This document shows, piece by piece, positions 1-64,000 of a stretch of 64,000 nt of DNA. The DNA is taken from IMG/VR virus record IMGVR_UViG_3300045988_113168; one strand, written 5' to 3'. The position numbers and the translations under genes were made by a program. Position 1 is the stretch's first letter; every line of letters starts with the position of its first letter. Source of the stretch: a virus. The notes below the pieces were generated by a model. That model worked only from the letters and a program-made list of their open reading frames with translations, did no database searches and was not told the DNA's origin.

Positions 1-2
1 AC

Positions 3-632
3 ACTTCTGGACACTCTATCATTTACAACGGCACAGAAGTCAAAGAGCTTGATCTTTACGGCACATTTGACGGCGTTGTGTTTGTCAGTCGTCCGTTTAT
101 CGCAATGGAAACAGGCTTTATGCCTATGTACGTCAAAACATCTATGGGATGGACTTCTATCCATCCTTGCAAGATTGTTGACTTCCTCAAAGAAGCATAC
201 AAGGCAAGAAGTGTTTCCCTTTATGACTGGAATGCCTATCAGCAGAGCAAGAAAGAAAAGCGTCTTGCAATGGAAAAGGTCAAACAACAGCAGAGTGAAA
301 CGGCTTTTCTCAGAGCGTCACAAACTAATGCAGAGGGCTCTTTGCGCTATCATAAGAGCAAGAAACGGCTGGATGACCGTTATAATGAAGTCGGTAAACC
401 GATCCAGAAGAAACGTTCTCAGCGTGTCGTGTTTGGTTCTAATGAATACGTTACTGTTTCCGGCTGGATTTATGGCAGAACGATTTCGATGAATAATCAT
501 AGTTTTGTCATGAACGAAAAAGTTTCGTATTATATGGACGGCACTGGATGCTGTGCCCGTGATTTTGATAACAGAGATATGCGCCCTTTGAATGACGTAT
601 TCCCTGTGAAATCTGGCAAGAAAGCAAGGTGA
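3..632 (+). CDS. hypothetical protein, 5' end outside window
   Basis: Frame 3 is open from the window edge to TGA 630-632. Track ORF 78..632 is the internal-start version. No motif recognised. Confidence 0.55.
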   Translation, partial: TSGHSIIYNGTEVKELDLYGTFDGVVFVSRPFIAMETGFMPMYVKTSMGWTSIHPCKIVDFLKEAYKARSVSLYDWNAYQQSKKEKRLAMEKVKQQQSETAFLRASQTNAEGSLRYHKSKKRLDDRYNEVGKPIQKKRSQRVVFGSNEYVTVSGWIYGRTISMNNHSFVMNEKVSYYMDGTGCCARDFDNRDMRPLNDVFPVKSGKKAR

Positions 633-700
633 TAACTTTGAGTTTGACAGCAATTCGTCAGAATGATATAATTGTACCATTAAGAAAAGGCGGTGCAATT

Positions 701-916
701 ATGGCAAATCGTGATTATAAAAAAGAGTACGCCAGAGAAAAGGATCAATCGAAGCATATCGGCCTGAAGGTTGAGCCCACTCTCTTTGAAGCGTTCACGG
801 CGAAAACAGAGCTAAATGGAACGACGAAAAACGCCGTTTTGAAAGCCTGTGCGGAAGCATACACTTATGGCAATCTCATTATTGATGAGAATGGAAAGCC
901 TAAGATCAAAGGTTGA
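701..916 (+). CDS. small putative DNA-binding protein (ribbon-helix-helix-like, tentative)
   Basis: ATG 701 lies inside track ORF 629..916 with AAGGCGG about 8 nt upstream. A short basic N-terminus is followed by a strand/helix-like segment (IGLKVEPTLFEAFTAKTE). The fold assignment is a guess. Confidence 0.45.
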   Translation: MANRDYKKEYAREKDQSKHIGLKVEPTLFEAFTAKTELNGTTKNAVLKACAEAYTYGNLIIDENGKPKIKG

Positions 917-995
917 TTCAAGCGCAAAGTGAACACCGATTCGTCAAACACTTTATGAGCTCAAAAATCATAGGGTGTTTTCTTTTTGCTCTAAA

Positions 996-1064
996 TTGCA
1001 TATTTATGCAAATAATATGCAGAATATGCAAAACGAAAATTCAGTAAAACCTCACATTTATGCC
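996..1064. promoter_or_regulatory. cluster of TTGCAT/ATATGCA boxes (candidate operator or iteron set)
   Basis: Palindrome TTGCATATTTATGCAA at 996-1011. ATATGCA occurs at 1015-1021 and 1024-1030, and ATTTATGC is repeated at 1002-1009 and 1056-1063. The cluster sits in a 266-nt gap after the RHH-like gene. Confidence 0.4.
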
Positions 1065-1182
1065 GTGCGATTAGCGGTCATGGGGAAGATAGTATACCGC
1101 TACCAGCCCAACAGGGTGCGCAATAGCGTTATAAAAACGAATTGGTAAAGCCTGGTTTGTCCTGGCAGAAAGGATGTTTGTT

Positions 1183-1311
1183 ATGAAATCGCTTCTCATG
1201 TTCTTTGGTTACTCTGCTTATCAGGCAAGCTGTGTTGCTCCTGTGATGTGGATGTTCGTTGTTGGTGTCATCGCTATGGGCGTGGCAGAATGGAAAGGGT
1301 GGTTGAACTAA
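1183..1311 (+). CDS. small membrane protein (42 aa)
   Basis: Below the track cutoff. ATG 1183 follows AAAGGA. Contains the hydrophobic stretch VAPVMWMFVVGVIAMGV. Its TAA overlaps the next ATG (TAATG), suggesting translational coupling. Confidence 0.5.
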   Translation: MKSLLMFFGYSAYQASCVAPVMWMFVVGVIAMGVAEWKGWLN

Positions 1312-1583
1312 TGAAACTCGATCCTGTTTATTCCGATATTGTTAATCGCTTTCAGTATGTGAAAACGACTAACGCAGACGCTTGGCAGAAATATGTTAAG
1401 AGCGTCATTGCAGAGCATGAGTACAATGATCTGTTAACCCGGATTGCGTGGGATTTGCTCAGGTATGTGTACACTTCTGGTACGATTTGTGAGTGGTACG
1501 ATAAGTACAACGTACATGATTCCCATATCACAACGGCAGTCAAGAAGGCTTATGTTGAAGTCTTTGGAGTACCGTCAGAATAA
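1311..1583 (+). CDS. hypothetical protein
   Basis: Internal ATG of track ORF 1248..1583, overlapping the upstream stop (TAATG). Confidence 0.6.
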   Translation: MKLDPVYSDIVNRFQYVKTTNADAWQKYVKSVIAEHEYNDLLTRIAWDLLRYVYTSGTICEWYDKYNVHDSHITTAVKKAYVEVFGVPSE

Positions 1584-1639
1584 AAGATATGTTTTAAGGA
1601 AAGTTTGTTATGACCGCAAAAGAATAAGGAGAATGCAAA

Positions 1640-1780
1640 ATGAAAAAAGGTCAGTATTTTATGAACGATGAAACCGGTGTTATCACCAACATTCACAGGG
1701 AAGCTGTTGAATGGTTTCGGCAGGGTTCGAATGTTTCCATCTGGATTAACGGTGTTTTTGTATGCCGTTGGGGTCACTAA
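1640..1780 (+). CDS. hypothetical small protein (46 aa)
   Basis: Below the track cutoff. ATG 1640 lies 8 nt after AAGGAG. It fills the gap between neighbouring genes. Confidence 0.5.
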   Translation: MKKGQYFMNDETGVITNIHREAVEWFRQGSNVSIWINGVFVCRWGH

Positions 1781-1796
1781 GAAAGGAGAACATAAA

Positions 1797-2120
1797 ATGA
1801 GAGCAAGTGTTGAAGTGTACGAGAACAATGCAGGCGGTATCTTTGTTGCTGTCTTTGGTCAGAACGGCCTGGAAAATATCATTCCGGGGTTTTATCATGA
1901 AATGATTTCTACGGCAGAATTCATTGACCAGTGCCTGCATGGGTGCTATGAATCGGATGATTTCAATCCGGCAGAATTTTCCGGCATGGATATGGATTCT
2001 GTTTACAATGAAATCAGCAGTCAGGATGACTTGATTGCAGAGTTTTTCGACAACAAAGAAATCATCCTGTATCCGGCAGACATGGGTGTTGCCGGAATGA
2101 AACTGTTTGGCATGGCTTGA
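1797..2120 (+). CDS. hypothetical protein
   Basis: ATG 1797 (MRASVEVY) after AAAGGAGAA, inside track ORF 1668..2120. Confidence 0.65.
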   Translation: MRASVEVYENNAGGIFVAVFGQNGLENIIPGFYHEMISTAEFIDQCLHGCYESDDFNPAEFSGMDMDSVYNEISSQDDLIAEFFDNKEIILYPADMGVAGMKLFGMA

Positions 2121-2202
2121 CCGTATGTTCACAAAATGTTCGCAGAAATAAAACGTATCAACGCATTAAAATGTGACGTTAATAAAATCTACATTTTAGT
2201 GC

Positions 2203-2231
2203 TTGACAAAATTATCGGTATCCTGTATTAT
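2203..2231 (+). promoter_or_regulatory. sigma-A type promoter (TTGACA-17-TATTAT)
   Basis: TTGACA at 2203-2208, a 17-nt spacer ending GTATCCTG, TATTAT at 2226-2231. Same architecture as the promoters at 22426 and 46670. Confidence 0.6.
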
Positions 2232-2246
2232 GTAGCTAAGAAAGGC

Positions 2247-2271
2247 AGTCCGTTAGAGGACTTTTATTTTT
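2247..2271 (+). terminator. weak hairpin plus T-run
   Basis: AGTCC/GGACT 5-bp stem with loop GTTAGA, then TTTTATTTTT. It lies between the promoter and the inverted 20-mer. Confidence 0.3.
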
Positions 2272-2278
2272 ACCGTTC

Positions 2279-2298
2279 AGCTATATAACACAGGATAC
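2279..2298 (+). promoter_or_regulatory. conserved 20-mer AGCTATATAACACAGGATAC (reverse orientation of the promoter core)
   Basis: One of six same-orientation copies, 18 nt upstream of ATG 2316. Near-perfect inverted repeat of 2218-2238. Confidence 0.55.
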
Positions 2299-2315
2299 GA
2301 AAGAGAGGCTATAAA

Positions 2316-2549
2316 ATGGAACGGAATTGGAAACTTGGTGACGATATGGTTGTGAGCGACAATCTTCTGGATGGTATTACGTTTGATGATTTGATACTGA
2401 CAGTGCATTGCAACTGTCCCAAAATTACAGAACAGGCTGTAAAAAAAGAGCTGAAAGAAATTCTTGCGATTCATATGCAGGATATGGAATTTTTACTCGA
2501 AAACAATATCGACAAGATAATTGAGATGGCAAGTAAAAACAGAGAATAA
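2316..2549 (+). CDS. hypothetical protein
   Basis: Track ORF with AGAGAGG upstream. Confidence 0.65.
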   Translation: MERNWKLGDDMVVSDNLLDGITFDDLILTVHCNCPKITEQAVKKELKEILAIHMQDMEFLLENNIDKIIEMASKNRE

Positions 2550-2561
2550 GGAGAACTGGTT

Positions 2562-3059
2562 ATGAAACGCAATGACTATAATTACGAGAGCTTTTACTAC
2601 ACAAGCGACAGCTGCCTAATTCTTATGAATGAGGTTCGTTATAAGAAAAATGATTTCGGGGAGATGATTCTTGTACCGGATGAAACAAAGGAAGAAGTGA
2701 TTTCACCTACGTTTTACACAAACTATATCACAGCAATTCCGTTCTTTAATGATGATTTCTTTGGCCCTCATGCTTCTTGTGAAGCTAAATGGGATAGAAC
2801 GCCGGCAGGAGCTGTGCCTACTGTGGTAACAACGATCAATGGTGCAGGTGATGAAAAGATTGTCGCCACATTTACATTCATCAGCAAAAGTAAGCTTTTG
2901 GATACTGCTGGATGGCGTGAAAAGGAAGTCATCAAAAATGCAAAATACTTCCATATTGAAAGAATTGACGGTGCAGATATGATTTACTTCTACACTGAAA
3001 GTGATGGCGATACGGCAGAAGGCATTTTTGATACTAAGAGATCTATTTGGAGGGGTTAA
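2562..3059 (+). CDS. hypothetical protein
   Basis: Track ORF with AAGGAG upstream. Confidence 0.7.
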   Translation: MKRNDYNYESFYYTSDSCLILMNEVRYKKNDFGEMILVPDETKEEVISPTFYTNYITAIPFFNDDFFGPHASCEAKWDRTPAGAVPTVVTTINGAGDEKIVATFTFISKSKLLDTAGWREKEVIKNAKYFHIERIDGADMIYFYTESDGDTAEGIFDTKRSIWRG

Positions 3060-3063
3060 AATA

Positions 3064-3219
3064 ATGACTGATATTCAGAAAAAGATGTGGGATGCTCTTT
3101 GCAAAATGTCTGGTGAAGATGTCGCAAGGCTGTTTGTGAATTGGTGTGGAGAGCAAATTCTGGACAATGACTTCTACAAAAATATGGTTGATGAGGGAGA
3201 GATTGAAGATGAAGAATGA
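3064..3219 (+). CDS. hypothetical small protein
   Basis: ATG 3064 (MTDIQKK) after GGAGGGG, inside track ORF 3001..3219. Confidence 0.6.
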   Translation: MTDIQKKMWDALCKMSGEDVARLFVNWCGEQILDNDFYKNMVDEGEIEDEE

Positions 3220-3643
3220 TTTTTACTGGAACAAGAACTATATGACTATTGCAAAGAATATTACAGAAAGGCATCGCACAAAAATTATAATACATAAAAG
3301 CTGGCAGTGGTATCTTGCTGAGTTTGATTCGCTTGAACAGCTACATTTCTTTGAAAACGTAGTTGGGTTCAAAACTCATTTTATTGAAATGGAAAATGGA
3401 ATTGCAAGATTTTCATTAAGCCATGAGTTTAAAGAAGAAAAGTATTTCTGGAAATTGTCTGAGCTTCCGGCTGGTGTAAAGCCCATCAAAGCATTATGTA
3501 ATGGTAGTATTGTTACCTGCTATTTTTTGAATGATGGAAAAATCATTCATTGGTATCGTCCAAATCCTAATGCACGAAATGTTTATAAACCAATGACAAT
3601 ACAACAGCATATTAAGCACCGTGAGGTATTTGGTTCATATTGA
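3209..3643 (+). CDS. hypothetical protein
   Basis: ATG 3209 (MKNDFYW) after GAGGGAGAG, inside track ORF 3146..3643. Confidence 0.6.
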   Translation: MKNDFYWNKNYMTIAKNITERHRTKIIIHKSWQWYLAEFDSLEQLHFFENVVGFKTHFIEMENGIARFSLSHEFKEEKYFWKLSELPAGVKPIKALCNGSIVTCYFLNDGKIIHWYRPNPNARNVYKPMTIQQHIKHREVFGSY

Positions 3644-3664
3644 AACGAAATAGGAGGACGAAGA

Positions 3665-3904
3665 GTGATTATTGATTCTATTCTTGACCGTAAAAACGGC
3701 AGGCGATACAGCGCACATGACTTCTATCTTGAAGTCAGAAAGTATGAGAGTCTGGGTGTAGGCACTCACGGTGAAGATATTTCAATCGCTATAGATTATG
3801 GCGATAACAAAGATGTGCAGCGTGTTCTGTGTCAGTACATCCAGCGCAATGGATACCCAACAGATATTGAGGACTACATAAGAAGTCAAGTCTGGGTGGT
3901 ATAA
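3665..3904 (+). CDS. hypothetical protein
   Basis: GTG start after AGGAGGA. Track ORF. Confidence 0.6.
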   Translation: MIIDSILDRKNGRRYSAHDFYLEVRKYESLGVGTHGEDISIAIDYGDNKDVQRVLCQYIQRNGYPTDIEDYIRSQVWVV

Positions 3905-3993
3905 GTAGTGGATGCAGGTGATTAGCGGTACTAGGGCAGACATAACCGCTATCAGAATGCGAAAGCATAAAAATATTAAAAGGAGTGTTTGAC

Positions 3994-4284
3994 ATGAAGA
4001 AGTTTAATTCGACCTTAAATAAAGGGTTCAATATGACTTTTGCAAATGGTATTACTGCAAGCGTCCAGTGGGGAGCTGGGAATTATTGCGATAATTATTT
4101 TAGCAAAGACTTCTTTTTCTCAAAAGAAGCAAGTTCTAATACAGCAGAAGTGGCCGCATGGAATGAAAGCGGCGAATGGGTTACAAATAAGCTCTACGAC
4201 ACCTTGGATGATGTTGCTGGGTATCTTTCACCAAATGAAGTGTTACAGTTTTTGAATAACTGTGCGAATTACAAAACGGTTTAA
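3994..4284 (+). CDS. hypothetical protein
   Basis: ATG 3994 lies 8 nt after AAGGAG. Track ORF 3985..4284. Confidence 0.65.
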   Translation: MKKFNSTLNKGFNMTFANGITASVQWGAGNYCDNYFSKDFFFSKEASSNTAEVAAWNESGEWVTNKLYDTLDDVAGYLSPNEVLQFLNNCANYKTV

Positions 4285-4314
4285 AATCATGCTTTTATAA
4301 AGGAGTAAAACATC

Positions 4315-4620
4315 ATGACTATTGAAGAAGCAGTAAAGGATTTCATTGCAAAAGCAAACCCTTCTAAGTGGGAAGGATATAACGATGAGTCTCCCGAATG
4401 GGGAGATATTGTCCCCAGAGACGTTAACCTAAATGATTTTGAATATGATGTTGAAAATCGAAAAATTATTTTATCTTTTGTTTTTGATGACTACGGTCGG
4501 TTAGTAACATACTGTCGGATTTTTAACAAGAAGAAAGATGAATTGATGAATGCAGGCTATATTGGCAGCATTTGTTTTGCCGACATTATGTCAAATACAA
4601 TTCGTGGAATATTTTATTAA
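4315..4620 (+). CDS. hypothetical protein (shares N-terminal motif with 11395..11712)
   Basis: Track ORF with AAGGAG upstream. Motif DFIxKxNPxxWxG is shared with 11395..11712. Confidence 0.65.
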   Translation: MTIEEAVKDFIAKANPSKWEGYNDESPEWGDIVPRDVNLNDFEYDVENRKIILSFVFDDYGRLVTYCRIFNKKKDELMNAGYIGSICFADIMSNTIRGIFY

Positions 4621-4812: not shown

Positions 4813-4962
4813 ATGTATACAGTAGAAGATTTTTATAAAGCGTATTCATGTTTGTACAAAACAACTAAAGAAGAAGCTATTGAAGTATATAAAAATTGCA
4901 GCGAGGAATTTGCTTATGAAACGATTTGTCGTTATAGATACCCTGATAAATATCCTTTCTAA
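4813..4962 (+). CDS. hypothetical small protein (49 aa)
   Basis: Below the track cutoff. ATG 4813 follows AAAGGAGAA. Confidence 0.5.
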   Translation: MYTVEDFYKAYSCLYKTTKEEAIEVYKNCSEEFAYETICRYRYPDKYPF

Positions 4963-4995
4963 GGGAATATTCCTTATCAAAATTGAGGTGATAAT

Positions 4996-5241
4996 ATGAT
5001 GCGTAATTGTTGGATTGTCACATACAAAGATTATCACGGAGAATATAGCTAGTGTGTTTTTTATAAAAAAGAGGATGCAGAAAAATGTATCAAAGAGGAT
5101 TTTGAAAACGCGTTGCATGACTTAAAAAAAGATGGGTGGTATGACCCGTACACGGTTGATGGAACGTATTGGAAGACAATATTTATTCCGAATACCGATA
5201 TTGATTATGAATGGAATCTTAAGATTTCAACCATTAGATGA
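4996..5241 (+). CDS. hypothetical protein with in-frame TAG at 5050-5052
   Basis: ATG 4996 after GAGGTGA. 18 codons, then TAG, then 62 further open codons with protein-like composition and no internal start, ending at TGA 5239-5241. It fills an otherwise gene-free 300-nt gap. Confidence 0.5.
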
Positions 5242-5281
5242 CGAATAAAACAGATATTTTACAATGATTGAGGTGATAAAT

Positions 5282-14935: not shown

Positions 14936-15754
14936 ATGAGTGCAGCTGTTGAAAGAAAAGAAGAACAGATATCTAAATTGATTTATTTTAATCCGAAGCC
15001 TTCTGTTCCGGCTAAAAAACGTGGTGCTACAAAAAGTAAGCAGAAGCGTAAGCGTAATATTTCTCCAATTAGAAGCTTGGATGATGTTCAAATGATTTCA
15101 GAATACTTCTGGGATAAAAAGCAATATCGCAATTGGTGTCTATTTAATGTCGGTATTGCAACTGGGTTGCGTGCTAGTGACTTGCTTAAATTGAAAGTTT
15201 CTGATATGTCTTACTGTCTTTATAATGGAAAAATTGAGGTGGTTGAAGACGCTGGAGTATGCATCGTTGAAGAAAAAACATCCAAGTATCGCGAAATTAT
15301 TCTTACTCCAGAAGCGAGGGACATTGTTGAAACATACATCAAGATTGTGAATCTTGGATATGATGATTGGATGTTTCCGTCTCGACAAGGGAGTTGGAAA
15401 AAGTCGTTGAGGACAAATGGTGGAGATGGGAAAACTGGTATTCCTCATATTGCAGAACCTAAAAAGGCCGGTGATCCTATTGATGTTGATTCTTTTGCTC
15501 GTATTCTTCGTAATGCTGGTAAGGATTTAGGTCTTAATTATAAGATTGCTTCTCACTCTTGCCGTAAGACGTTTGGTTATCGTGAAATGTGCCTTAACAA
15601 GGATGACAATCAGGCACTGTCTTGGATTCAGAGTCAGTTGAATCATAGTAGCCAGGATATTACATTACGGTACGTTGGTTTTGATGAGGATAAGACAAAA
15701 GAATATTATAAGAAGACTTTTTATGGTGTGAATACACACAGCTTGGAAGACTGA
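14936..15754 (+). CDS. tyrosine recombinase / phage integrase family
   Basis: ATG 14936 after GAGGTGA. Box I is ATGLRASDL (Arg). Also EEKTSKYREI (Lys), HSCRKTFG (HxxR) and LNHSSQDITLRYV (His/Tyr), so the catalytic set appears complete. Confidence 0.8.
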   Translation: MSAAVERKEEQISKLIYFNPKPSVPAKKRGATKSKQKRKRNISPIRSLDDVQMISEYFWDKKQYRNWCLFNVGIATGLRASDLLKLKVSDMSYCLYNGKIEVVEDAGVCIVEEKTSKYREIILTPEARDIVETYIKIVNLGYDDWMFPSRQGSWKKSLRTNGGDGKTGIPHIAEPKKAGDPIDVDSFARILRNAGKDLGLNYKIASHSCRKTFGYREMCLNKDDNQALSWIQSQLNHSSQDITLRYVGFDEDKTKEYYKKTFYGVNTHSLED

Positions 15755-26308: not shown

Positions 26309-26387
26309 GGCCCTATGGCGGAACGAGGCATACGCAACAAGCTCAAACCTTGTAAAATTCTCAGTTCAAATCTGAGTAGGGCTACCA
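26309..26387 (+). tRNA. tRNA, anticodon CAA (Leu-type 5' half) but with short variable region, CCA encoded
   Basis: Hand-folded cloverleaf. Acceptor GGCCCTA/TAGGGCT, D arm GCG-12 nt-CGC (class II-like), anticodon arm ACAAG-CTCAAAC-CTTGT, 6-nt variable region, T arm CTCAG-TTCAAAT-CTGAG, A73, CCA. Confidence 0.6.
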
Positions 26388-26466
26388 ACCCATTTGCAGA
26401 TGGGTAAGTGCTAGAATATTGGCAAATCGGAAAGACGGTTGACTGCTGGACAGACAGCTTTGATAT

Positions 26467-26551
26467 GTCACTATGGCGAAATTGGCGAGACGCATCGGAC
26501 TTAAGTTCCGACGGTAGCGATACCATCTGGGTTCGACTCCCAGTAGTGACA
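26467..26551 (+). tRNA. tRNA-Leu(TAA)
   Basis: Acceptor GTCACTA/TAGTGAC, anticodon arm TCGGA-CTTAAGT-TCCGA, 15-nt variable arm, T arm CTGGG-TTCGACT-CCCAG, A73. No CCA encoded. Confidence 0.8.
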
Positions 26552-26558
26552 CTGATAT

Positions 26559-26634
26559 CCGGGTGTAGCTCAGTTGGAAGAGCGCGTGCTTTGGGAGCAT
26601 GAGGCCGCAGGATCGTGACCTGTCACTCGGACCA
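26559..26634 (+). tRNA. tRNA-Pro(TGG)
   Basis: Acceptor CCGGGTG/CACTCGG, D arm GCTC-AGTTGGAA-GAGC, anticodon loop TTTGGGA, T arm GCAGG-ATCGTGA-CCTGT (A54/T58), CCA encoded. Confidence 0.8.
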
Positions 26635-26666
26635 GCCCGAAAGGGCATGTAGAATTTTTCATTCAC

Positions 26667-26722
26667 ATTATTCCCAGCTCTCTGGAAACAGAGCAGTGTG
26701 GCGTAGCAAGCTGGGTAGATTA
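26667..26722 (+). ncRNA. conserved 56-nt structured element, copy 1 (immediately 5' of tRNA-Gln)
   Basis: ATTATTCCCAGCTC is identical to copy 2. Outer helix 26673-79/26709-15. Inner hairpin CTCTG-GAAA-CAGAG at 26680-93. Confidence 0.55.
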
Positions 26723-26794
26723 CGAGGATTAGCCAAGCGGATAAGGCAGTGGAATTTGACTCCACGACCGCAGGTTCGATTCCTGTATCCTCGA
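26723..26794 (+). tRNA. tRNA-Gln(TTG)
   Basis: Acceptor CGAGGAT/ATCCTCG, D arm GCCAAGCGGATAAGGC (typical of tRNA-Gln), anticodon loop ATTTGAC, T arm GCAGG-TTCGATT-CCTGT. Confidence 0.8.
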
Positions 26795-26801
26795 TTTATA
26801 T

Positions 26802-26886
26802 GCGGGTATGGTGTAACTGGCAGCCACGCGGATTTTAGGTGTCCGTGCCGAAAGGCGTGAGGGATCGTGCCCCTCTACCCGTACCA
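26802..26886 (+). tRNA. tRNA-Leu(TAG)
   Basis: Acceptor GCGGGTA/TACCCGT, anticodon arm CGGAT-TTTAGGT-GTCCG, 13-nt variable arm TGCCGAAAGGCGT, T arm GAGGG-ATCGTGC-CCCTC (A54/T58), CCA encoded. Confidence 0.8.
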
Positions 26887-26933
26887 CGGTCATAGAATGG
26901 TTGCGTACCGTTTGTTGATCTCCTTTGACCACT

Positions 26934-26989
26934 ATTATTCCCAGCTCGCTCGTAAGAGTGCAGTAGTGCTTTGTAAGCTGAGTGATTGT
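26934..26989 (+). ncRNA. conserved 56-nt structured element, copy 2 (immediately 5' of irregular tRNA-like element)
   Basis: Same length and same distance to the downstream cloverleaf as copy 1. Inner hairpin CGCTC-GTAA-GAGTG at 26947-60 carries compensatory changes. Confidence 0.55.
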
Positions 26990-27061
26990 GCAGTTATGGT
27001 GTAGTTGGTAAGCACGCTTGCTGATGAAGTAAGAGGATGAGTTCAAAACTCATTGACTGCA
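26990..27061 (+). tRNA. irregular tRNA-like element (anticodon loop TGATGAA, 3-nt variable region)
   Basis: Acceptor GCAGTTA/TGACTGC, D arm GTGT-AGTTGGTAA-GCAC and T arm ATGAG-TTCAAAA-CTCAT are good. However position 33 is G and the variable region is too short. The nominal anticodon is ATG. Confidence 0.35.
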
Positions 27062-27065
27062 AAAT

Positions 27066-27258
27066 ATGAAATCAGTTGTTCTAGCTCGTTCGTGGATTGG
27101 CCGTACATTGGCGACCGGAAAGACGTCATACCGGTAAAGGACGTCAAGCCAGACAAGAAGAGAAATAAGGTGTAAGCCGACTAGCTATCGGATAAATACT
27201 CTTCGGTTCGCCAGAAAACTAGAATGTAAAACGAATGGTTGGCTGTTTCTGATTTCAT
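27066..27258 (+). ncRNA. about 193-nt structured non-tRNA spacer RNA
   Basis: Closed by a perfect 10-bp helix (27066-75 ATGAAATCAG / 27249-58 CTGATTTCAT) and a second helix (27079-84 / 27219-24). Interleaved helices 27114-18/27131-35 and 27122-27/27140-45 look pseudoknot-like. Hairpin CCGA-CTAGCTA-TCGG. No convincing ORF or SD. Confidence 0.5.
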
Positions 27259-27264
27259 TTATAT

Positions 27265-27340
27265 GCGACTGTAGTTCAATTGGCAGAGCGTCAGATTTCC
27301 AATCTGAATGTTGCGGGATCGTGCCCCGTCAGTCGCTCCA
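27265..27340 (+). tRNA. tRNA-Gly(TCC)
   Basis: Acceptor GCGACTG/CAGTCGC, anticodon arm TCAGA-TTTCCAA-TCTGA, T arm GCGGG-ATCGTGC-CCCGT (A54/T58), U73, CCA encoded. Confidence 0.85.
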
Positions 27341-27471
27341 CACGCAGCCCCTTACGCTGCACCGGTTGCTCAGAGCCGAAAGAAACCTATATGTTACGAC
27401 ATGGTTGCCAAGAGTGATCATATTGGAACGCGACGTAGCTTGGATAGTGAGAATTAAATTCTGAGGTATAC

Positions 27472-27540
27472 TGCTGGATAGCTTAATGGTAAAAGCGCTC
27501 GGAAACGCCGAGAGATAAGGTTCGATTCCTTCACTGGCAT
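27472..27540 (+). tRNA. degenerate tRNA-like element (no usable anticodon loop)
   Basis: The D arm GCTT-AATGGTAA-AAGC and T loop GGTTCGATTCC are good. The anticodon arm is replaced by CTCGG-AAACG-CCGAG (5-nt loop) and the acceptor pairing is weak. Confidence 0.3.
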
Positions 27541-27567
27541 CACGCCGATGAAAGTCGGCGTTTGCAT

Positions 27568-27644
27568 GGGATAGTAGCTCAGTTGGTCAGAGCTGGCGGC
27601 TCATAACCGCTTGGTCGCGAGTTCAAATCTTGCCTGTCCCACCA
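27568..27644 (+). tRNA. tRNA with CAT anticodon (elongator Met or Ile2; not initiator-like)
   Basis: Acceptor GGGATAG/CTGTCCC with a paired 1-72, anticodon arm GGCGG-CTCATAA-CCGCT, T arm GCGAG-TTCAAAT-CTTGC, CCA encoded. Confidence 0.8.
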
Positions 27645-27785: not shown

Positions 27786-28478
27786 ATCTTACGAGTTCTA
27801 ATTGCCTGTGAAGAATCACAGGAAGTTTGTAAAGCATTTCGATTGCTTGGTCATGAAGCGTATTCTTGCGATATTCAACCTCCGTCCGGTGGTTGCCCAG
27901 AGTGGCATATTTTGGGTGACGCACTGGCAGCTCTACAGGGTGGGCAGATAGTCACAATGGATGGCACACAACACTATGTTGAGCAGTGGGATCTATTGAT
28001 TGCACATCCTCCGTGTACATATTTATCAAACGCTGGCGCACGATGGTTATGGGCTGGACACAAATTGAATCAAGAACGGTATCAACGAGGATTGGAAGCT
28101 AAGGAGTTTTTTATGGCGTTTTATAACGCACCGATCAAACACATTTGTGTTGAGAATCCAATTCCGAGTGCTGTTTATGAAATGCCAAAACCATCGCAGA
28201 TGATTCAGCCATATGAATTTTATGGTAAGGACCATCCATGGACAAAGAAGACCTGTTTATGGCTGAAAGGTCTTCCTAATCTGGCTCCGGTTGAAGCGGT
28301 TGAACCGAAGGGTCCGTATTGTCCGTGTGGAACTTCCGCTAATAAAGGTAATGTAAGAAATCGTGGCGCAGCTAAACGTGGTGAGGATGCAAAGAATAGG
28401 GCTAAGACCTTCCATGGGATTGCTCGTGCTTTTGCAGAACAGTTCTCAGAGTACATTGAAAATGAAGGAGATGAGTAA
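27786..28478 (+). CDS. C5-cytosine-methyltransferase-like protein (motif IV/VI-like), apparent ATC start
   Basis: AHPPCTYLSNAG resembles C5-MTase motif IV (PC..S.AG) and CVENP resembles motif VI (ENV). No glycine-rich motif I is seen. The frame is open only from 27759 and has no ATG/GTG/TTG before 27843. ATC 27786 lies 7 nt after GGAGG. Confidence 0.5.
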   Translation: MLRVLIACEESQEVCKAFRLLGHEAYSCDIQPPSGGCPEWHILGDALAALQGGQIVTMDGTQHYVEQWDLLIAHPPCTYLSNAGARWLWAGHKLNQERYQRGLEAKEFFMAFYNAPIKHICVENPIPSAVYEMPKPSQMIQPYEFYGKDHPWTKKTCLWLKGLPNLAPVEAVEPKGPYCPCGTSANKGNVRNRGAAKRGEDAKNRAKTFHGIARAFAEQFSEYIENEGDE

Positions 28479-29592
28479 AAATTTGGTCTCAAACATCAAG
28501 ACTTTTAATCCATTAAATGTGTCCAGTAAGTTCGCCATATGCGGACTTCCCATCAGAATAGACTCATACAAGACCTGCTCTTTTGGTTGTAAATACTGTT
28601 TTGCAGAAAACCGAAAGATAATGGAGTACGACAAACACATACAGATCGGAAACGTAAGACAAGTAAAACAAAAGTTACATAGGATTTTTGATGAACGAAC
28701 TGTTGATGCCACAAAACTTCTTGATGTTTTGATTGCAGATGGAATTACGTGGCATTGCGGAGGAATGAGTGACCCATTCCAGCCATGCGAGCAAAAGTAT
28801 CATATTACAAAGCAAATTGTCGATATAGCGAATGAATATAATGTGAGTATTTTATTCTCGACAAAAAGCAATTGTTTGTATGGTGCCGATGTTAAACCTG
28901 ACCTACATACATTTCAATTGAGCGTTAGCAATGTTGATGACAGGCGAGATATCGAGCCAAATGTACCAAGTATCGCTGAGAGATATAGATTCTTTTGTGA
29001 TTTAAAGAATGCTGGATTTAGAGTTGGTATCCGAATCCAACCTTTCATCCCTAATGTTTCTACATTAAAAATTGTAGAGATGTTCAAGGACGCAGACCAG
29101 TTTACAATCGAAGGCGTGAAAATCGTACCACAGAATAAAGAGTGTAAGGAATTTATTTTGGAGCACTTGGGCTTAAATCGATGCGATTTTACCCAAATGG
29201 GGTTACTGAATCTAAAACCAGAGGTTCGGCTGCAGCTCTATAAGCCGTTTATTGATTATTTCAAGCAGAATGATATTCCTTATTCGATTGCAGACAATGA
29301 CTTGCGCTGGATTGGAAATAACAAATGTTGCTGTGGAGATAGGCTAGTAAAGAAAAGCACGAATTTTAATACCACTCGTATGATTATGGATTATGGTATC
29401 GACTACAGCAAAGAACAGCTTGACGAAGAACTTGGATGTTCTGGGTGTGGAGATTGTAAATGCAATAATCTTTTTACGTCTAATAGACAAGAAGGCTGTA
29501 TTACCGTCAGTGACTTCTATGGTAAAAGGTTTGAGCGAAAGTCTAGTCCGTTCTCACCGAAGTTTCAGTACATTTCTGAAACAATCTCATAA
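28471..29592 (+). CDS. radical SAM protein, SplB / DNA-photolyase-like family
   Basis: CSFGCKYC (CxxxCxxC), GGMSDPFQPCE and ILFSTKS fit the COG1533-type pattern. It overlaps the upstream gene by 8 nt. The start could also be 28462 or 28483. Confidence 0.7.
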   Translation: MSKNLVSNIKTFNPLNVSSKFAICGLPIRIDSYKTCSFGCKYCFAENRKIMEYDKHIQIGNVRQVKQKLHRIFDERTVDATKLLDVLIADGITWHCGGMSDPFQPCEQKYHITKQIVDIANEYNVSILFSTKSNCLYGADVKPDLHTFQLSVSNVDDRRDIEPNVPSIAERYRFFCDLKNAGFRVGIRIQPFIPNVSTLKIVEMFKDADQFTIEGVKIVPQNKECKEFILEHLGLNRCDFTQMGLLNLKPEVRLQLYKPFIDYFKQNDIPYSIADNDLRWIGNNKCCCGDRLVKKSTNFNTTRMIMDYGIDYSKEQLDEELGCSGCGDCKCNNLFTSNRQEGCITVSDFYGKRFERKSSPFSPKFQYISETIS

Positions 29593-29620: not shown

Positions 29621-29827
29621 ATGAACAGCAAAATTTCTATCAATGCAACCATCGACCCCGGTTCTTTGAGTATTCCGGCAAGTCCTATCTTCCAACAGGA
29701 AAAGAATACATATTTTTGTCCGTTTTGTGTGACGAAGCTGTAGAAGTTCGAGCGTGAATGTTCTGATTGTCATCGCAAGATGGATTGGAGTAGGTTCACT
29801 GAAAAGAAGGAGGAGGTGTTCACTTGA
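29621..29827 (+). CDS. zinc-ribbon mini-protein with in-frame TAG at 29741-29743
   Basis: ATG 29621 after AGAGGTGA. The sequence reads ...FCPFCVTKL-TAG-KFERECSDCHRK..., so the two CxxC knuckles lie on either side of the TAG. The extended frame ends at TGA 29825-27, overlapping the next start (TTGA). Confidence 0.55.
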
Positions 29828-59620: not shown

Positions 59621-60162
59621 ACTACATGAAAATTGTTCCCTGTGACATAGCGAATGGCGAAGGTGTGCGCGTAAGTCTTTTCGTTTCGGGGTGTAACCAT
59701 CATTGTCCTGGTTGCCATAACCAGCAAACGTGGGATGCAAACGCAGGCCAGCCATTTACAGAAGAAACGCTAGACGAACTAATTGAGTTGCTTCGACCAG
59801 ATTACATTCAGGGGCTAACTCTTACTGGTGGAGATCCAATGTATCCAGAAAATCGAGAAATAATCAGTGATATTATTTATAAAGTCTTAGTTGAGTTTGG
59901 AGATAAAAAAGATATCTGGATGTGGACTGGATATACCTATGAAGAATTACTAAGCCAGATAAATCCGCTCAATAAAAATGATGACATCGATATGATTTTA
60001 AATCTTATCGATGTCATCGTGGATGGCCCATATATTGAATCAAAACGTGACATCTCACTACCTTATATGGGAAGCTCCAATCAGAGAGTTATCGATTGCA
60101 TGAAAACTACTGGATACGACAATATAGTCCTTTGGTGGGCTCCAGAAGAGAAAGGAAAATAA
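59617..60162 (+). CDS. nrdG: anaerobic ribonucleotide reductase activating protein NrdG (radical SAM)
   Basis: DIANGEGVRVSLFVSGCNHHCPGCHN is the NrdG-type CxxxCxxC cluster region. GGDP motif present. Confidence 0.85.
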   Translation: MNYMKIVPCDIANGEGVRVSLFVSGCNHHCPGCHNQQTWDANAGQPFTEETLDELIELLRPDYIQGLTLTGGDPMYPENREIISDIIYKVLVEFGDKKDIWMWTGYTYEELLSQINPLNKNDDIDMILNLIDVIVDGPYIESKRDISLPYMGSSNQRVIDCMKTTGYDNIVLWWAPEEKGK

Positions 60163-60163
60163 T

Positions 60164-60697
60164 ATGGATTTAGGAAATTACGAAAAGTTCCCAGATAGCA
60201 ATGTTTTTACCACTATTTATCATCCGAATATTAAGATCAATAAACTACACGATGATGCTCGTCTGCCGACTTATGGTTCTAAAAATGCTGCTTGTGCAGA
60301 CCTGTACGCCTATATCGGTTTTGATGACGCAACGATTGTAAACAAGAATGGTGATCGCTGCATTATGATTCAGCCGCATGAGACCGTTAAGGTACATACT
60401 GGTTTGCGGATGGCTCCGCCGGAAGGTTGGTATGTCGCTATCTATGCTCGCAGTGGTATGGCAACGAAGCAGGGGCTTGCACCTGCGAATAAAACAGGGG
60501 TTTGTGATCAGGATTACCGTGGAGAATATATCGTAGCACTACATAATCATTCCAATATCCCTCAAATGATTACTCATGGCGACCGCATTGCTCAGATGGC
60601 AGTTGTTCCGTTCTGGCAGGCTGATTTTGAAGAGGTTTCCGAATTGGACGAAACGGAGCGTGGAGCGGGCGGTTTTGGTTCTACTGGAAAACAGTAA
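60164..60697 (+). CDS. dut: dUTP diphosphatase
   Basis: AACADLYA, ARSG, GDRIAQM and C-terminal RGAGGFGSTG are the dUTPase motifs. Confidence 0.8.
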   Translation: MDLGNYEKFPDSNVFTTIYHPNIKINKLHDDARLPTYGSKNAACADLYAYIGFDDATIVNKNGDRCIMIQPHETVKVHTGLRMAPPEGWYVAIYARSGMATKQGLAPANKTGVCDQDYRGEYIVALHNHSNIPQMITHGDRIAQMAVVPFWQADFEEVSELDETERGAGGFGSTGKQ

Positions 60698-61170
60698 TGG
60701 AGAGAATTATGGGAAAAACAATTGATACATCCGAGCTTCTGTATCGGATGGGCAAGTACGCAGAAATCGATGTTGGAGAAGAAAAACATGATGCGTTTAT
60801 GCATTTCATGCTTCTTTTAACTCGCACAATTGAGAAGATGCCGAATGCTGCGCTAACGCATAAGAATCCAATTGATGATGAGATTATGGAGAATCAGTAC
60901 AAGCTAGTGAACGCAATCTCACTGGTAACCGGTCGCACTCGAAACGATGGCTGGTATCCCACTTGGATTGGCATGGCCATGAAGATTGTGCGTCTGAAGA
61001 GTGGAGAATCAGCTGGTTTCCTGTACATCAAAGATAATGAGGGACACGACTATCCGGGTGCAATGCATACATCTTGTGTTGTTGATTACTACATCTCAAG
61101 TGACAAGAAAAATGTTATTGTCCAGACCGAAAACACAATTTATAAGTTTGAAAAAATTGAGGAGAACTAA
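60697..61170 (+). CDS. hypothetical protein
   Basis: Track ORF. ATG 60709 is an alternative start. Confidence 0.6.
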   Translation: MERIMGKTIDTSELLYRMGKYAEIDVGEEKHDAFMHFMLLLTRTIEKMPNAALTHKNPIDDEIMENQYKLVNAISLVTGRTRNDGWYPTWIGMAMKIVRLKSGESAGFLYIKDNEGHDYPGAMHTSCVVDYYISSDKKNVIVQTENTIYKFEKIEEN

Positions 61171-61173
61171 ATT

Positions 61174-61479
61174 ATGGCTAAGTATTTTTATGTTTATAAT
61201 ATCGCTGGTGTCGAGGATTCTATTGTAAAGATGTTCAACACTGATACTGGTGCAATGGGTGAGAAGAGTGTCAAAAAGGATCGCATGGATGGTTTTATTG
61301 ATGGTATTAAGACGAGCGGCTTTGTTTTGAATAAGGAGCTGGCAGATGCTGATGTTGCAGAGAGCGAAGCAAAGCGTGTTCTGGCAGAGAAGATGACTGC
61401 TTATCAGGCAGCTCGCGACGATTATCATAATAAGAGCGAGACTCTAAAGAAGGTCAAGGCTAAGTACGGCATTAAGTAA
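61174..61479 (+). CDS. hypothetical protein
   Basis: Track ORF with GAGGAGAA upstream. Confidence 0.65.
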   Translation: MAKYFYVYNIAGVEDSIVKMFNTDTGAMGEKSVKKDRMDGFIDGIKTSGFVLNKELADADVAESEAKRVLAEKMTAYQAARDDYHNKSETLKKVKAKYGIK

Positions 61480-61491
61480 GGAGAATACATA

Positions 61492-61803
61492 ATGAAGTAT
61501 TACGCTATTGAATCTCATTACGAGAAAGAAGCTCCATTTGGAATTGCATGGCAAATAAAGCTGTTTGATGGGCATACGCTTTTGGAAGAGTACGACCACA
61601 TCTTTTATAACGAGATTGCTGGTTACTGCAAGTGTCTTGAAGATATAGGATTCGTGGATGAGCGATGGACTTTTAAAAGGCCACAGGACGAAGAAGTCCA
61701 TGACTTTGTTAAAATGTGCATAAAGAAAAAGGAGAATGCACTTCAGACGGAGTGGTATGAAATGACCGGTAACTGGCCAAATGGCGCAGTGACTCTCGAT
61801 TAA
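61492..61803 (+). CDS. hypothetical protein
   Basis: Track ORF with AAGGAGAA upstream. Confidence 0.65.
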   Translation: MKYYAIESHYEKEAPFGIAWQIKLFDGHTLLEEYDHIFYNEIAGYCKCLEDIGFVDERWTFKRPQDEEVHDFVKMCIKKKENALQTEWYEMTGNWPNGAVTLD

Positions 61804-61832
61804 AAGGTAAATTTTACTGAGGAAGTGATTCT

Positions 61833-62165
61833 ATGGCATACGCAGGCAAAAATGGATACGATAAAGACACGGATATTTTATCTCCGATAGCTAGTAATAT
61901 TATTGGATGGGTAGGTAAAGCAGATAGAGAAGAGATTCTTGATCTCAGTTTTGAACGAATTTCCCTTTATCAGGTAGGTAAGATTCTTGAAAAACTTGGC
62001 TATCAGAATATTGATATGAGCGAAAACGGATGGGAAATGGATTACTGGTGGGAGTACGAACTTGCCAATAACGCCAATGATATTCCAAATCTTCCTTGTC
62101 GAATTCAAATTAAAGGAAGTTGCGCAGAGGGCACAATGATGCTTAATGTTTTAGATAACGAATAA
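61833..62165 (+). CDS. hypothetical protein
   Basis: Track ORF with GAGGAAG upstream. Confidence 0.65.
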   Translation: MAYAGKNGYDKDTDILSPIASNIIGWVGKADREEILDLSFERISLYQVGKILEKLGYQNIDMSENGWEMDYWWEYELANNANDIPNLPCRIQIKGSCAEGTMMLNVLDNE

Positions 62166-62200
62166 CTTTAATAGTAGTGGTGGGTGGGAGGAATAAATAT

Positions 62201-62473
62201 ATGAATGTTATAAAGCATGGAACGCATCGAGCAAAAGATTCTGAAAATTTATATAAAGTGACTTGTAATTCTTGCGGGTGTGTATTTGAAGCTAAAAGAT
62301 CTGAATTTCATGTATGGCCTTTACCAGCACGACCTGTTAGCGAAACGGTAAAAAATTATGATAATACAGGGCGTCCGGCAGAAATACAATGTCCTGAGTG
62401 CAAATGCACTTGTGGAATTAGAATGAGATTGCTTGCAAGAGAATCTGTCTTTTTACACGCATATTGTAGGTGA
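62201..62473 (+). CDS. zinc-ribbon protein, member 1 of a tandem paralogue trio
   Basis: ATG 62201 after GGGAGGAA. CNSCGC...CPECKC. Confidence 0.6.
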   Translation: MNVIKHGTHRAKDSENLYKVTCNSCGCVFEAKRSEFHVWPLPARPVSETVKNYDNTGRPAEIQCPECKCTCGIRMRLLARESVFLHAYCR

Positions 62474-62477
62474 TAGT

Positions 62478-62696
62478 ATGAAAGCACATATTCGAGAAGA
62501 AAAGAAAACAACTCCATTAAAACTTGGTGAGGGAACATTACTTCAAGAGAAAGACGGCAAACTGTATAAGATTTGTGATACAGTAGAATATGATGATACG
62601 CATACCGACGATGAAGTTATCAAGGTTGCTTTATCTGAAGAAAATATGATTGTTGGATCGAACTTTTTAATGCATCGTTTGTGTTCACAGATTTAG
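62478..62696 (+). CDS. hypothetical protein
   Basis: ATG 62478 after AGGTGA, inside track ORF 62433..62696. Confidence 0.55.
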   Translation: MKAHIREEKKTTPLKLGEGTLLQEKDGKLYKICDTVEYDDTHTDDEVIKVALSEENMIVGSNFLMHRLCSQI

Positions 62697-62704
62697 GTGT
62701 AGAT

Positions 62705-62935
62705 ATGCATAAAACTGATAGTTTGAAAAATCCGGTAATCGTATTTCCATGTAAGAATTGCGGTTGCACAACTAAGATTCGAGTAGCCTCTTTTGAAAAT
62801 CCTGATTTGGATATTCCTGAGAGTAATGTGATTGCGTGCTATAGATGTAGAGCGGAAGTTGCTGGATCTGAGTTTATTTCTTGGAAAGAAGCAACTAAAA
62901 CTATTTTTACCGTGGAGGTGCCAGATGGCAATTAA
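62705..62935 (+). CDS. zinc-ribbon protein, member 2 of trio
   Basis: ATG 62705 after AGGTG. CKNCGC...CYRC. Confidence 0.6.
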   Translation: MHKTDSLKNPVIVFPCKNCGCTTKIRVASFENPDLDIPESNVIACYRCRAEVAGSEFISWKEATKTIFTVEVPDGN

Positions 62936-63143
62936 AATTATTCAACATAAACAGACTCCAAAAGAACTTGCATATCATTTTAAATGCAACTGTGGTTGTG
63001 AATTTTGGTCTGATTCGGAAGGTGTTCTGAGTGCGAAGTCATTGGATGTGATTTTATTTTATCAAACACAATGTCCAGAATGCGGCAGTCGTGTAGAGAG
63101 CCACGATGAACCGGTTCTGCGAGAAGAAATTTTTGACGATTAA
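62925..63143 (+). CDS. zinc-ribbon protein, member 3 of trio
   Basis: ATG 62925 after GGAGGTG. CNCGC...CPECG. Confidence 0.6.
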   Translation: MAIKIIQHKQTPKELAYHFKCNCGCEFWSDSEGVLSAKSLDVILFYQTQCPECGSRVESHDEPVLREEIFDD

Positions 63144-63172
63144 AATGTATGATTTAAAGTGTGGTGAACGTA

Positions 63173-63571
63173 ATGGAAGTTTGGGAACTAAATCTTCTGC
63201 ATGATGGGGATATAGAACGAATATGTATGTGCTCTGATGAACAACCATTATTCGAAATGGCAGTCGATAGGGCATTTGATTTATTTGCAAAAATAAATGA
63301 GTGGCCTCTCAAACAAGAAAATTGTCATGCTTCCGTAAGTATAAACGACAAGCTTCATTCCATTTTAGTGAAGATTAGCACACAAGACGATAATACAGTT
63401 GAACTCTGGGAGTATAAATGGGAATGCATTTATAAAGAACCTCATGAAGACAAGTCTAGTAACACCTTACTTCAGGAAGTTGTTTCTCGTGTGCAAGACA
63501 TTCCAAAACTATTTTATGATTGGGCGGAGAATTTCTGTTGGAGAGCGAGAAAGAATGGCTATTTGCAGTAA
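63173..63571 (+). CDS. hypothetical protein
   Basis: ATG 63173 after GGTGAA, inside track ORF 63161..63571. Confidence 0.6.
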   Translation: MEVWELNLLHDGDIERICMCSDEQPLFEMAVDRAFDLFAKINEWPLKQENCHASVSINDKLHSILVKISTQDDNTVELWEYKWECIYKEPHEDKSSNTLLQEVVSRVQDIPKLFYDWAENFCWRARKNGYLQ

Positions 63572-63899
63572 ATGTTTGCATAAAGAAGTATGCGCTTTTA
63601 GGAAGCAAACAAGAGATAGTTGCGCTGAATCTTGCAAAGATTTCCTCGGTTGGGTCAAGGTCATGGGTGAGCGTCCGATTCCTTTAAAAGACAATCTTGT
63701 AATAAGCAGTTATGGTCTGTCGTTTATTGGATATTACGATTACAACAAAAGAGATCGAGAACACTTTTACGATGTAAACGCCCTCGAAAAAATTTATGAA
63801 TGTCCATCTTACTGGCTGAAAGGACTTGATTTGCATGAGCAAGAAAAAATCGCTAACAAAGAATACGAGTGTAGGAAATCCAATATGGGACAAGTATGA
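63555..63899 (+). CDS. Cys-rich hypothetical protein
   Basis: ATG 63555 after GGAGAGCGAG, inside track ORF 63399..63899. Confidence 0.6.
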   Translation: MAICSKCLHKEVCAFRKQTRDSCAESCKDFLGWVKVMGERPIPLKDNLVISSYGLSFIGYYDYNKRDREHFYDVNALEKIYECPSYWLKGLDLHEQEKIANKEYECRKSNMGQV

Positions 63900-64000
63900 G
63901 ATTGTAGGAGTCTCTTTTGACACATCAAATAATCCAAACAAGAAGTTCTTCAAGCCGGTTTACATAATGCCGGATGGAGATGTCGTAGCTTGCGATGGAA
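63835..64000 (+). CDS. hypothetical protein, 3' end outside window
   Basis: ATG 63835 lies 9 nt after AAGGA. The frame stays open to the window edge and overlaps the previous gene by 65 nt. Confidence 0.4.
   Translation, partial: MSKKKSLTKNTSVGNPIWDKYEIVGVSFDTSNNPNKKFFKPVYIMPDGDVVACDG

Follow-up and report, generated by a model that had tools for sequence, protein, structure and literature searches.

The stretch analysed here is 64,000 nucleotides of viral DNA (IMG/VR record IMGVR_UViG_3300045988_113168; the whole stretch is called the window below), and it covers the early, replication-related half of an SPβ-like temperate phage (~138 kb) that infects Faecalibacterium. Its genes have almost completely lost the amber codon TAG as a terminator. 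We suggest, with a probability of about 0.7, that this loss belongs to a late, tRNA-mediated decoding of UAG as tryptophan, with TAG stops purged across the whole phage family. The further proposal of a natural UAG→Trp code variant, polymorphic in one abundant family of gut Faecalibacterium prophages, with either a CCA or one of five CUA alleles in the tRNA array slot, has in our estimate slightly better than even odds.

According to this model, a descendant of the phage tRNA-Trp(CCA) with the anticodon changed to CUA would decode UAG as tryptophan late in infection. TGG would have changed to TAG at a few conserved Trp positions of the terminase, portal, YonG-like and virion proteins and of a lysis-cassette membrane protein, and because these key codons became TAG, the synthesis of the late proteins would depend on the CUA tRNA. 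The terminase, portal and lysis proteins would then be made only after the late-operon tRNA is present. In a CUA background the TAG-ended genes would be read through, and genes would pass freely among the members of the mosaic family; selection would therefore strip TAG stops from the entire gene pool, early genes included, and the resulting purge across early genes would be what the window displays. From the sequence comparisons we infer both the residue inserted at UAG, tryptophan, and the causal direction between suppression and stop-codon purge. If the model is right, a codon reassignment has been caught in progress, with the stop already purged genome-wide, and UAG would act in a temperate phage as a switch, gated by the tRNA, over packaging and lysis.

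TAG stop codons are depleted in the window and its relatives

An earlier reading of the window's letters (the original prediction) held that TAG is never used as a terminator. Our gene call, based on codon usage and ribosome-binding sites, gave 132 open reading frames (ORFs; 90.6% coverage) with 71 TAA, 58 TGA and 3 TAG stops. The three TAG-ended calls resolve to one real gene, one spurious ORF (26867-27004, which crosses tRNA genes) and one truncated front (29621-29743) of the 68-codon ORF 29621-29827. Strictly, the word never does not hold, as the gene at 62478-62696 ends in TAG; the depletion itself does. This gene, also given as 72 amino acids (aa) in public metagenome gene calls for loci L001 and L003, has a TGA nine codons past its TAG-GTG-TAG end. 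In the relatives L002, L004, L005 and L006 the same gene ends ...FVFTD* in another frame, its last 11 residues and stop stemming in the window from a 1-nt indel in a run of T. Because of this one-base difference from four relatives, the TAG stop is the by-product of a recent frameshift.

The claim that such an absence exceeds chance was borne out. The Faecalibacterium flanks end 17 of 151 genes in TAG (~11%), and SPβ, treated with the same kind of caller, 21 of 130 (16%). The probability of at most one TAG stop in 128 genes is 5.6e-6 at the 11% of the host and 1e-2 at 5%. Outside the window, 27 further genes of the same genome have 0 TAG stops. The orthologues of 31 window genes in 80 relatives, where the stop was taken as the next codon when the alignment reaches the C-terminus, end in TAA 672 times, in TGA 456 times and in TAG 0 times (n=1128). 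Family-wide, TAG makes up 1.2-2.4% of the stops of high-confidence genes. Genuine TAG terminators in the genomes bearing the CUA tRNA are few and have a backup stop 2 or 7 codons on (e.g. TAG-NNN-TAA); they were seen at an 86-aa gene upstream of the RNA polymerase (RNAP) gene in L114-L117, L126, L127, L131-L133, L178 and L179. The single TAG stop of the window, TAG-GTG-TAG, is doubled in a similar way.

TAG is also the most under-represented trinucleotide on the + strand of the window (434 observed, 866 expected under a first-order Markov model), while CTA is normal. Out of frame, TAG reaches 0.77 and 0.72 of the number expected from codon usage, a mild shortfall, so the deficit lies mainly in frame. 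An avoidance of TAG at the DNA or mRNA level as a separate phenomenon was rejected, the off-frame deficit being mild and equalled by that of TAA in one frame.

These figures bear on an explanation by composition, chance or a host effect, in which low G+C, codon context, a host suppressor, pyrrolysine or a weak release factor 1 would act and the phages would have no decoder; we consider it very improbable. TAG is usually the rarest stop, and Borges et al. ascribe TAG/TGA depletion in the relatives of recoded phages to low GC (10.1101/2021.08.26.457843). TGA is sensitive to low GC too, however, and makes up 45% of the window stops, which rules out low G+C as the cause of TAG loss. The TAG usage of the host speaks against a host-level cause, that of SPβ (34.5% G+C) against composition, and the probability and orthologue counts given above against chance. 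A crude motif search through the window, its flanks and seven related loci, all translated in six frames, gave no class-I release-factor signature (G.GGQ..[VI]N), with ~25 kb of the late region outside the sample; in what was sampled, the proposed check for a phage release-factor gene was negative.

A CUA tRNA is allelic with the phage tRNA-Trp in the late operon

Any amber decoder had been predicted to lie outside the window or in the host. In the relatives of the phage, the late operon has a second tRNA array on the late-gene strand, set between the yonJ-like and yonG-like genes and, in the reference locus, ~3.8 kb downstream of the RNAP gene. Two sets of 80 loci were compared, one around the polymerase gene and one around the YonD gene, and this array includes a tRNA with a CUA anticodon in 47 and 45 of them, respectively (~57%). 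A tRNA-Trp(CCA) is present in the late array of 8/80 and 10/80 loci, respectively, and the two tRNAs never occur together in one locus. The relatives most similar to the window in the early and RNAP regions are almost without exception CUA-positive.

The CUA tRNAs fall into five structural types, three of them called by ARAGORN and two (D and E, with a short D arm) recovered by a search for the CUCUAAA anticodon stem-loop, ARAGORN missing both. ARAGORN alone left many genomes with in-frame TAGs seemingly without a suppressor, and the stem-loop search resolved them; the Rfam tRNA model scores one of the short-D-arm types at 45.3 bits. All types have in common with tRNA-Trp the acceptor stem (G1·U72, C2-G71, G3-C70 ...), G73 and an encoded CCA end, and the anticodon loop (CUCUAAA in the CUA types, CUCCAAA in tRNA-Trp) differs at position 35 only. 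The outline of the CUA tRNA is GCGCC...CUCUAAA...GGGCGUGCCA, and the consensus is a cloverleaf with compensatory changes in 13 of 21 pairs. Because of the shared acceptor stem, G73 and loop and the compensatory stem changes, the CUA tRNAs are, as judged from these features, functional and diversified derivatives of the phage tRNA-Trp(CCA), with which they are allelic.

ARAGORN names these tRNAs tRNA-Pyl, a point in favour of the composition and host explanation in its pyrrolysine form. The label follows from the anticodon alone, the tRNAs are paralogues of tRNA-Trp, and the in-frame TAGs align with Trp and not with Lys; pyrrolysine decoding was therefore rejected, though no systematic search for pyl genes was made, and the derivation from a Trp tRNA counts against that explanation as a whole.

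In-frame TAGs of the late genes align with tryptophan

In-frame TAG sites of the relatives were scored against TAG-free genomes as reference. They align with Trp at ~12 distinct late-gene sites, each common to 10-25 genomes. The late-gene alignment that had been proposed thus gives Trp as the residue at TAG, and the code-15-like recoding considered in the original prediction did not hold, the Gln-aligned cases being found in single genomes. TAG replaces W61 of TerL in 21-23 loci, six residues ahead of the Walker A motif SRNFGKS, in the context HVL-W-ACSRNFGKS (...NASHVL-X-ACSR), and W54 is a second TerL site. Further Trp-aligned TAGs were found at W48 of the YonG-like protein, W338 of the portal, W85 of a 160-aa protein, W69 (19 loci) and W89 (15 loci) of a 341-aa protein, and several other positions; in a 65-codon ORF, the TAG "stop" reads TGG in 64 other loci. 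Every conserved TAG site lies in the late operon or the lysis cassette, and no clean in-frame TAG was detected in 31 early gene families of 80 relatives.

At least one in-frame TAG is present in 39 of 45 loci with the CUA tRNA and in 3 of 30 without it (Fisher p = 3e-11, uncorrected for shared ancestry). Among genomes with tRNA-Trp(CCA), 0/10 have an in-frame TAG.

The same mechanism with the CUA tRNA charged with another amino acid, likeliest Gln after the pattern of code 15 and of the E. coli tRNA-Trp amber suppressor, would make this an ordinary TAG→Gln recoded phage. U35 is an identity element of glutaminyl-tRNA synthetase, a point for this possibility. A few TAGs do align with Gln (Q68, Q145 and Q190 of a ClpP-like protein, Q62 of a 329-aa protein and position 5050 of the window). 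In addition, where the code of the phage differs from that of the host, the only reassignments that Borges et al. report are TAG→Gln and TGA→Trp (10.1101/2021.08.26.457843). We nevertheless regard charging with Gln as improbable. All TAGs at Gln, Ser or Arg are confined to a single genome each, against the ~12 Trp-aligned sites in 10-25 genomes each; the CUA tRNAs have the acceptor stem and discriminator of the phage tRNA-Trp and replace tRNA-Trp in the array; and TGG>TGA, an equally accessible mutation, was found in one clean case.

A conserved TAG in the lysis cassette of the window's own genome

Locus L364 belongs to the same contig as the window and covers the far end of the late operon, 8 kb past the right window end. 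Its lysis cassette consists of an endolysin, a holin (phrog_6918) and, directly upstream, a gene of 167 codons for a protein with a single transmembrane (TM) segment, which contains an in-frame TAG (Table 1) just after this segment. The TAG is also found in 25 relatives, while TGG stands there in the two divergent homologues, which are 74% and 67% identical; the context is EINPWS-W-[IV]A (...IEINPWS[W]VATHIGNALNAGVMNEIK). Where contigs with the lysis-gene TAG also cover the late array, the CUA tRNA is present in 15/15. These data suggest that the genome of the window carries a CUA tRNA as well. Upstream of the lysis cassette, an apparent "gene" of 180 codons contains two TAGs; it was not used, since two small ORFs have probably been joined there in error.

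The lysis-gene TAG is also the place to weigh the view that avoidance of TAG was inherited and nothing more. No amber decoder would work in this phage; TAG would have been lost earlier or via exchange with suppressor-carrying relatives, the lysis gene would be made shorter from an internal start, and the in-frame TAGs would be plain nonsense or termination codons. A public gene caller gives a 112-aa ORF downstream of the lysis-gene TAG, which agrees with such a start, as do the equal rarity of TAG stops in relatives without a CUA tRNA, the unseen late array of the window's genome and the ordinary nonsense mutations in the window, all three treated below. The retention of the TAG in 25 relatives just past the TM segment, with Trp in the divergent homologues, the CUA tRNA in all 15 TAG-sharing relatives with a covered array, and the almost uniformly CUA-positive nearest relatives argue the other way, and we consider inherited avoidance alone unlikely.

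Observations that weigh against the proposed late UAG→Trp decoding

Besides the shared ancestry behind the Fisher test, several observations count against late decoding of UAG as Trp. The depletion of TAG stops is as strong in relatives without a CUA tRNA, or with tRNA-Trp(CCA), as in those with it. The purge may predate suppression, or may persist through gene flow alone; equal depletion without the CUA tRNA would then place the purge possibly first, which fits a codon-capture sequence. A few genomes (L352, L353) have TAGs at Trp sites without a detectable CUA tRNA. The CUA tRNA of the window's genome is predicted from the late arrays of relatives, and the expectation of a decoder outside the window, which agrees with those arrays, extends to this genome by prediction. 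Late expression of the tRNA is deduced from its position and strand, and in E. coli the CUA version of tRNA-Trp receives mostly Gln.

Within the window the picture is also less favourable. The two in-frame TAGs, at 5050 and 29741, are present where the original prediction had placed them, in ORFs 4996-5241 and 29621-29827, and both fall at non-Trp codons of accessory genes. The site of TAG 5050 is Gln in the nearest homologue, P0005 (96% identical), and Lys in P0001, P0002 and P0004. At TAG 29741, 8/8 other variants have GAG (Glu), the other 204 nt being identical, and a 31-mer with this strain-specific TAG is absent from IMG/VR. Because the relatives carry sense, non-Trp codons there, both TAGs are, on this comparison, recent single-base nonsense mutations: TAG 29741 a strain-specific G>T change of GAG, and TAG 5050 a change of a Gln/Lys codon and not a recoded Trp site. 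They therefore lose their value as evidence of recoding. The proposed gain in ORF continuity under a TAG-sense code is almost absent in the window, where coding coverage is 90.55% with code 11 and 91.11% with TAG as sense. Of the original alternatives, amber avoided or amber read as sense, both appear to apply in the phage lineage, with the support for the second coming from outside the window.

Comparison with known systems

Borges et al. proposed for recoded gut phages (the Lak, crAss-like, Garnet, Topaz, Agate and Jade clades) a model of stop depletion, a suppressor tRNA and then in-frame stops in late and lysis genes, the Topaz prophage of Oscillospiraceae being a temperate recoded example (10.1101/2021.08.26.457843). 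The present family resembles these phages in the phage-encoded suppressor tRNA (here in relatives), the standard-code host, the depletion of the reassigned stop, the in-frame stops in late structural and lysis genes with early and integrase genes free of them, the existence of close relatives with and without recoding, and the temperate members. Unlike in those phages, TAG aligns with Trp and not with Gln, the array slot of the suppressor can instead hold an allelic tRNA-Trp(CCA), the phage is temperate, SPβ-like and ~138 kb long, and TGA is abundant, so that low GC fails to explain the TAG loss. Recoding is also sparse here, with 1-3 genes per 20 kb split by TAG in the relatives, and the code-11 coding density is therefore normal.

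The code-15 phages share with this family the gut origin, a similar size, tRNA-Sup(CTA) and TAG within the TerL, portal and lysis genes. Among them, crAss-like phages have been validated by metaproteomics (PMC9523058), and phAss-1 (proposed Phassvirus, PMC10607447) has 136 kb, TAG in 41 ORFs (28%), 36 tRNAs and three Gln-type suppressor tRNA genes. The TAGs of phAss-1 align with Gln, those of the window family with Trp. Phassvirus was rejected as a relative, belonging to the Gln-type group, with no megablast match to the window, while the best match of the window's Pol III alpha is Clostridium phage Amboise (47% identical).

SPβ (NC_001884, ~134 kb) is likewise temperate and has divergent early and late blocks, a YonO-type single-subunit (two-barrel) RNAP and the Pfam families YonK, YonJ_N, YonG_N, YonD_N and YonB in the order also found here, together with TerL (YonF) and the portal (YonE). 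Unlike the window, SPβ ends 16% of its genes in TAG. The annotation of SPβ lists no tRNA in the 100 kb examined, whereas the window family has two tRNA arrays, and it differs further in Pol III alpha, NrdD and others, in a tyrosine integrase with Xis and in the Faecalibacterium host. Membership in the genus Spbetavirus was rejected on the megablast and Pol III alpha results.

The su+7/supU amber suppressor of E. coli, a mutant of spontaneous or laboratory origin that is for the most part mischarged with Gln, arose from tRNA-Trp by C35→U. The phages share this one-base route from a CCA to a CUA anticodon, but their CUA form is a maintained natural allele with five structural types and TAGs at Trp positions. 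To our knowledge TAG→Trp occurs in no standard code table, and full-text literature searches gave no report of it in phages. Stop recoding of gut phages is known as TAG→Gln and TGA→Trp, mostly in heavily recoded genomes, and the comparisons made here point to TAG→Trp.

The mechanism would be transparent, a one-base anticodon change in a phage tRNA-Trp, and the relatives span its stages: no TAG stops and no suppressor, tRNA-Trp(CCA), and tRNA(CUA) with one to few late TAGs. The route of reassignment by depletion, capture and reuse can be tested here, and so can recoding as a gate on late expression and lysis. The system is present as Faecalibacterium prophages in at least one NCBI genome (GCA_003478405.1). 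Annotation of these very common prophages with the standard code splits TerL and other genes and overlooks two of the suppressor tRNA types.

Phage genome and host

The window has 40.4% G+C, a strong GC skew and every credible gene on the + strand, with products including Pol III alpha, a RecD2-type helicase, RecJ, an ATP-dependent ligase, NrdD and its activase, ThyX and dUTPase (Pfam). Three assemblies from one human-gut sample (ENA ERZ772847 NODE_28_length_137766, ZHAN15-1_SAMEA2737733 scaffold_68 and Logan ERR589592_1656) match it with 100% identity over part of their length; each is ~137.7 kb, and they are mutually circularly permuted. Genes for FolD, Xis and a tyrosine integrase follow on the right side of the window and give way, in other samples, to Faecalibacterium genes, which identifies the element as a Faecalibacterium temperate phage or prophage; an IMPDH gene of the host flank is 100% identical to that of Faecalibacterium metagenome-assembled genomes. 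The G+C of the phage (40%) is 17 points lower than that of the host (~57%).

To the left there is a divergent gap of 1.9 kb and then the minus-strand late operon, which opens with a 927-aa YonO-type RNAP (PF05183) adjoining the window and continues with homologues of SPβ YonK, YonJ, YonG, TerL, portal, YonD and YonB. The closest IMG/VR contig (…_127938) stops at the RNAP gene. IMG/VR contains more than 200 relatives, sized 125-141 kb, and megablast of 6.6 kb of the window against 50,697 GenBank phage records gave no match.

The prophage sits at two chromosomal sites (L002-L006 vs L003, L365-L367), one adjoining IMPDH/NAPRTase genes and the other carboxyltransferase/oxaloacetate-decarboxylase genes. 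Beyond the terminal integrase, extra tyrosine-recombinase genes were found in the early block (window 14936-15754) and in the late structural region (L286 18973-19962).

The early tRNA array

The local array of the window (Table 1) encodes Leu-CAA, Leu-UAA, Pro-UGG, Gln-UUG, Leu-UAG, an odd "His-AUG", Gly-UCC and Met-CAU. ARAGORN, Rfam and a regular-expression search all gave no CUA anticodon in it, in agreement with the original prediction, and in the homologous early arrays of 80 relatives a CUA tRNA never occurs. The "His (atg)" tRNA has an unusual anticodon loop, UGAUGAA, in which a G replaces the expected U33, together with an 8-bp acceptor stem and a U-1:A73 pair. The tRNA-like element at 27472-27540 folds into a cloverleaf whose anticodon loop has 5 nt, and it is probably a tRNA that has decayed. 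Both were considered as hidden suppressors and rejected, neither having CUA. Both tRNA arrays, early and late, provide tRNAs for A/U-ending codons.

Directly upstream, a 736-aa fusion protein makes up a complete tRNA repair kit. It suggests a defence against host anticodon nucleases and is context here, outside the decoding mechanism.

Table 1. Positions of the features discussed (window coordinates, or locus coordinates where a locus is given)
Feature	Position	Strand	Remarks
Early/replication gene block	1..64000	+	~129 genes; stops TAA ~70, TGA 58, TAG 1
Accessory gene, 81 codons, in-frame TAG 5050-5052	4996..5241	+	Translation, homologue alignment
Fusion of Pnkp-like kinase/phosphatase and T4 Rnl1-type RNA ligase, 736 aa	24032..26242	+	Pfam AAA_33, Metallophos, RNA_lig_T4_1
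Early tRNA array, eight tRNAs	26309..27644	+	ARAGORN, Rfam
"His (atg)" tRNA	26989-27062	+	ARAGORN; in early arrays of 15/80 relatives
Weak tRNA-like element	27472..27540	+	Rfam tRNA model 32.4 bits; no ARAGORN call
Zinc-ribbon gene (CPFC...CSDC), 68 codons, in-frame TAG 29741-29743	29621..29827	+	Variant comparison
Sole window gene ending in TAG (72 aa)	62433/62478..62696	+	Stop TAG-GTG-TAG
In-frame TAG, codon 42 of the 167-codon lysis-cassette gene	L364 19162-19164	minus	Homologue alignment
Homing-endonuclease/TnpB-like loci	L193 13977-14966; L194 12684-13706, 15426-16415; L198 15645-16664; L201 7938-9185; L195 13202-14497

Other features of the phage family

In the same genome, ~5.4-6.4 kb past the right window end (L001 19206-20240), the interval from the integrase/attP region to the end of the late operon includes a gene whose 344-aa product has an AcrVA2-like Pfam domain and, judging from this domain, may be an anti-CRISPR. 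Among the tetranucleotides of the window, GATC was observed 133 times (300 expected), and CGCG and ACGT are also under-represented; this deficit looks like restriction-site avoidance. Two positions behave as cassette slots. Unrelated small genes occupy 4962-5281 in different relatives, and at 27843-29592 most relatives have a C5 DNA methyltransferase (PF00145), the genome of the window having two overlapping ORFs with no significant Pfam family there. The late operons of the relatives are rich in homing-endonuclease genes (LAGLIDADG, GIY-YIG, HNH), and in some cases such a gene interrupts that of the terminase; a TnpB-like (Cas12f1-like TNB) gene adjoins the late tRNA array in relatives.

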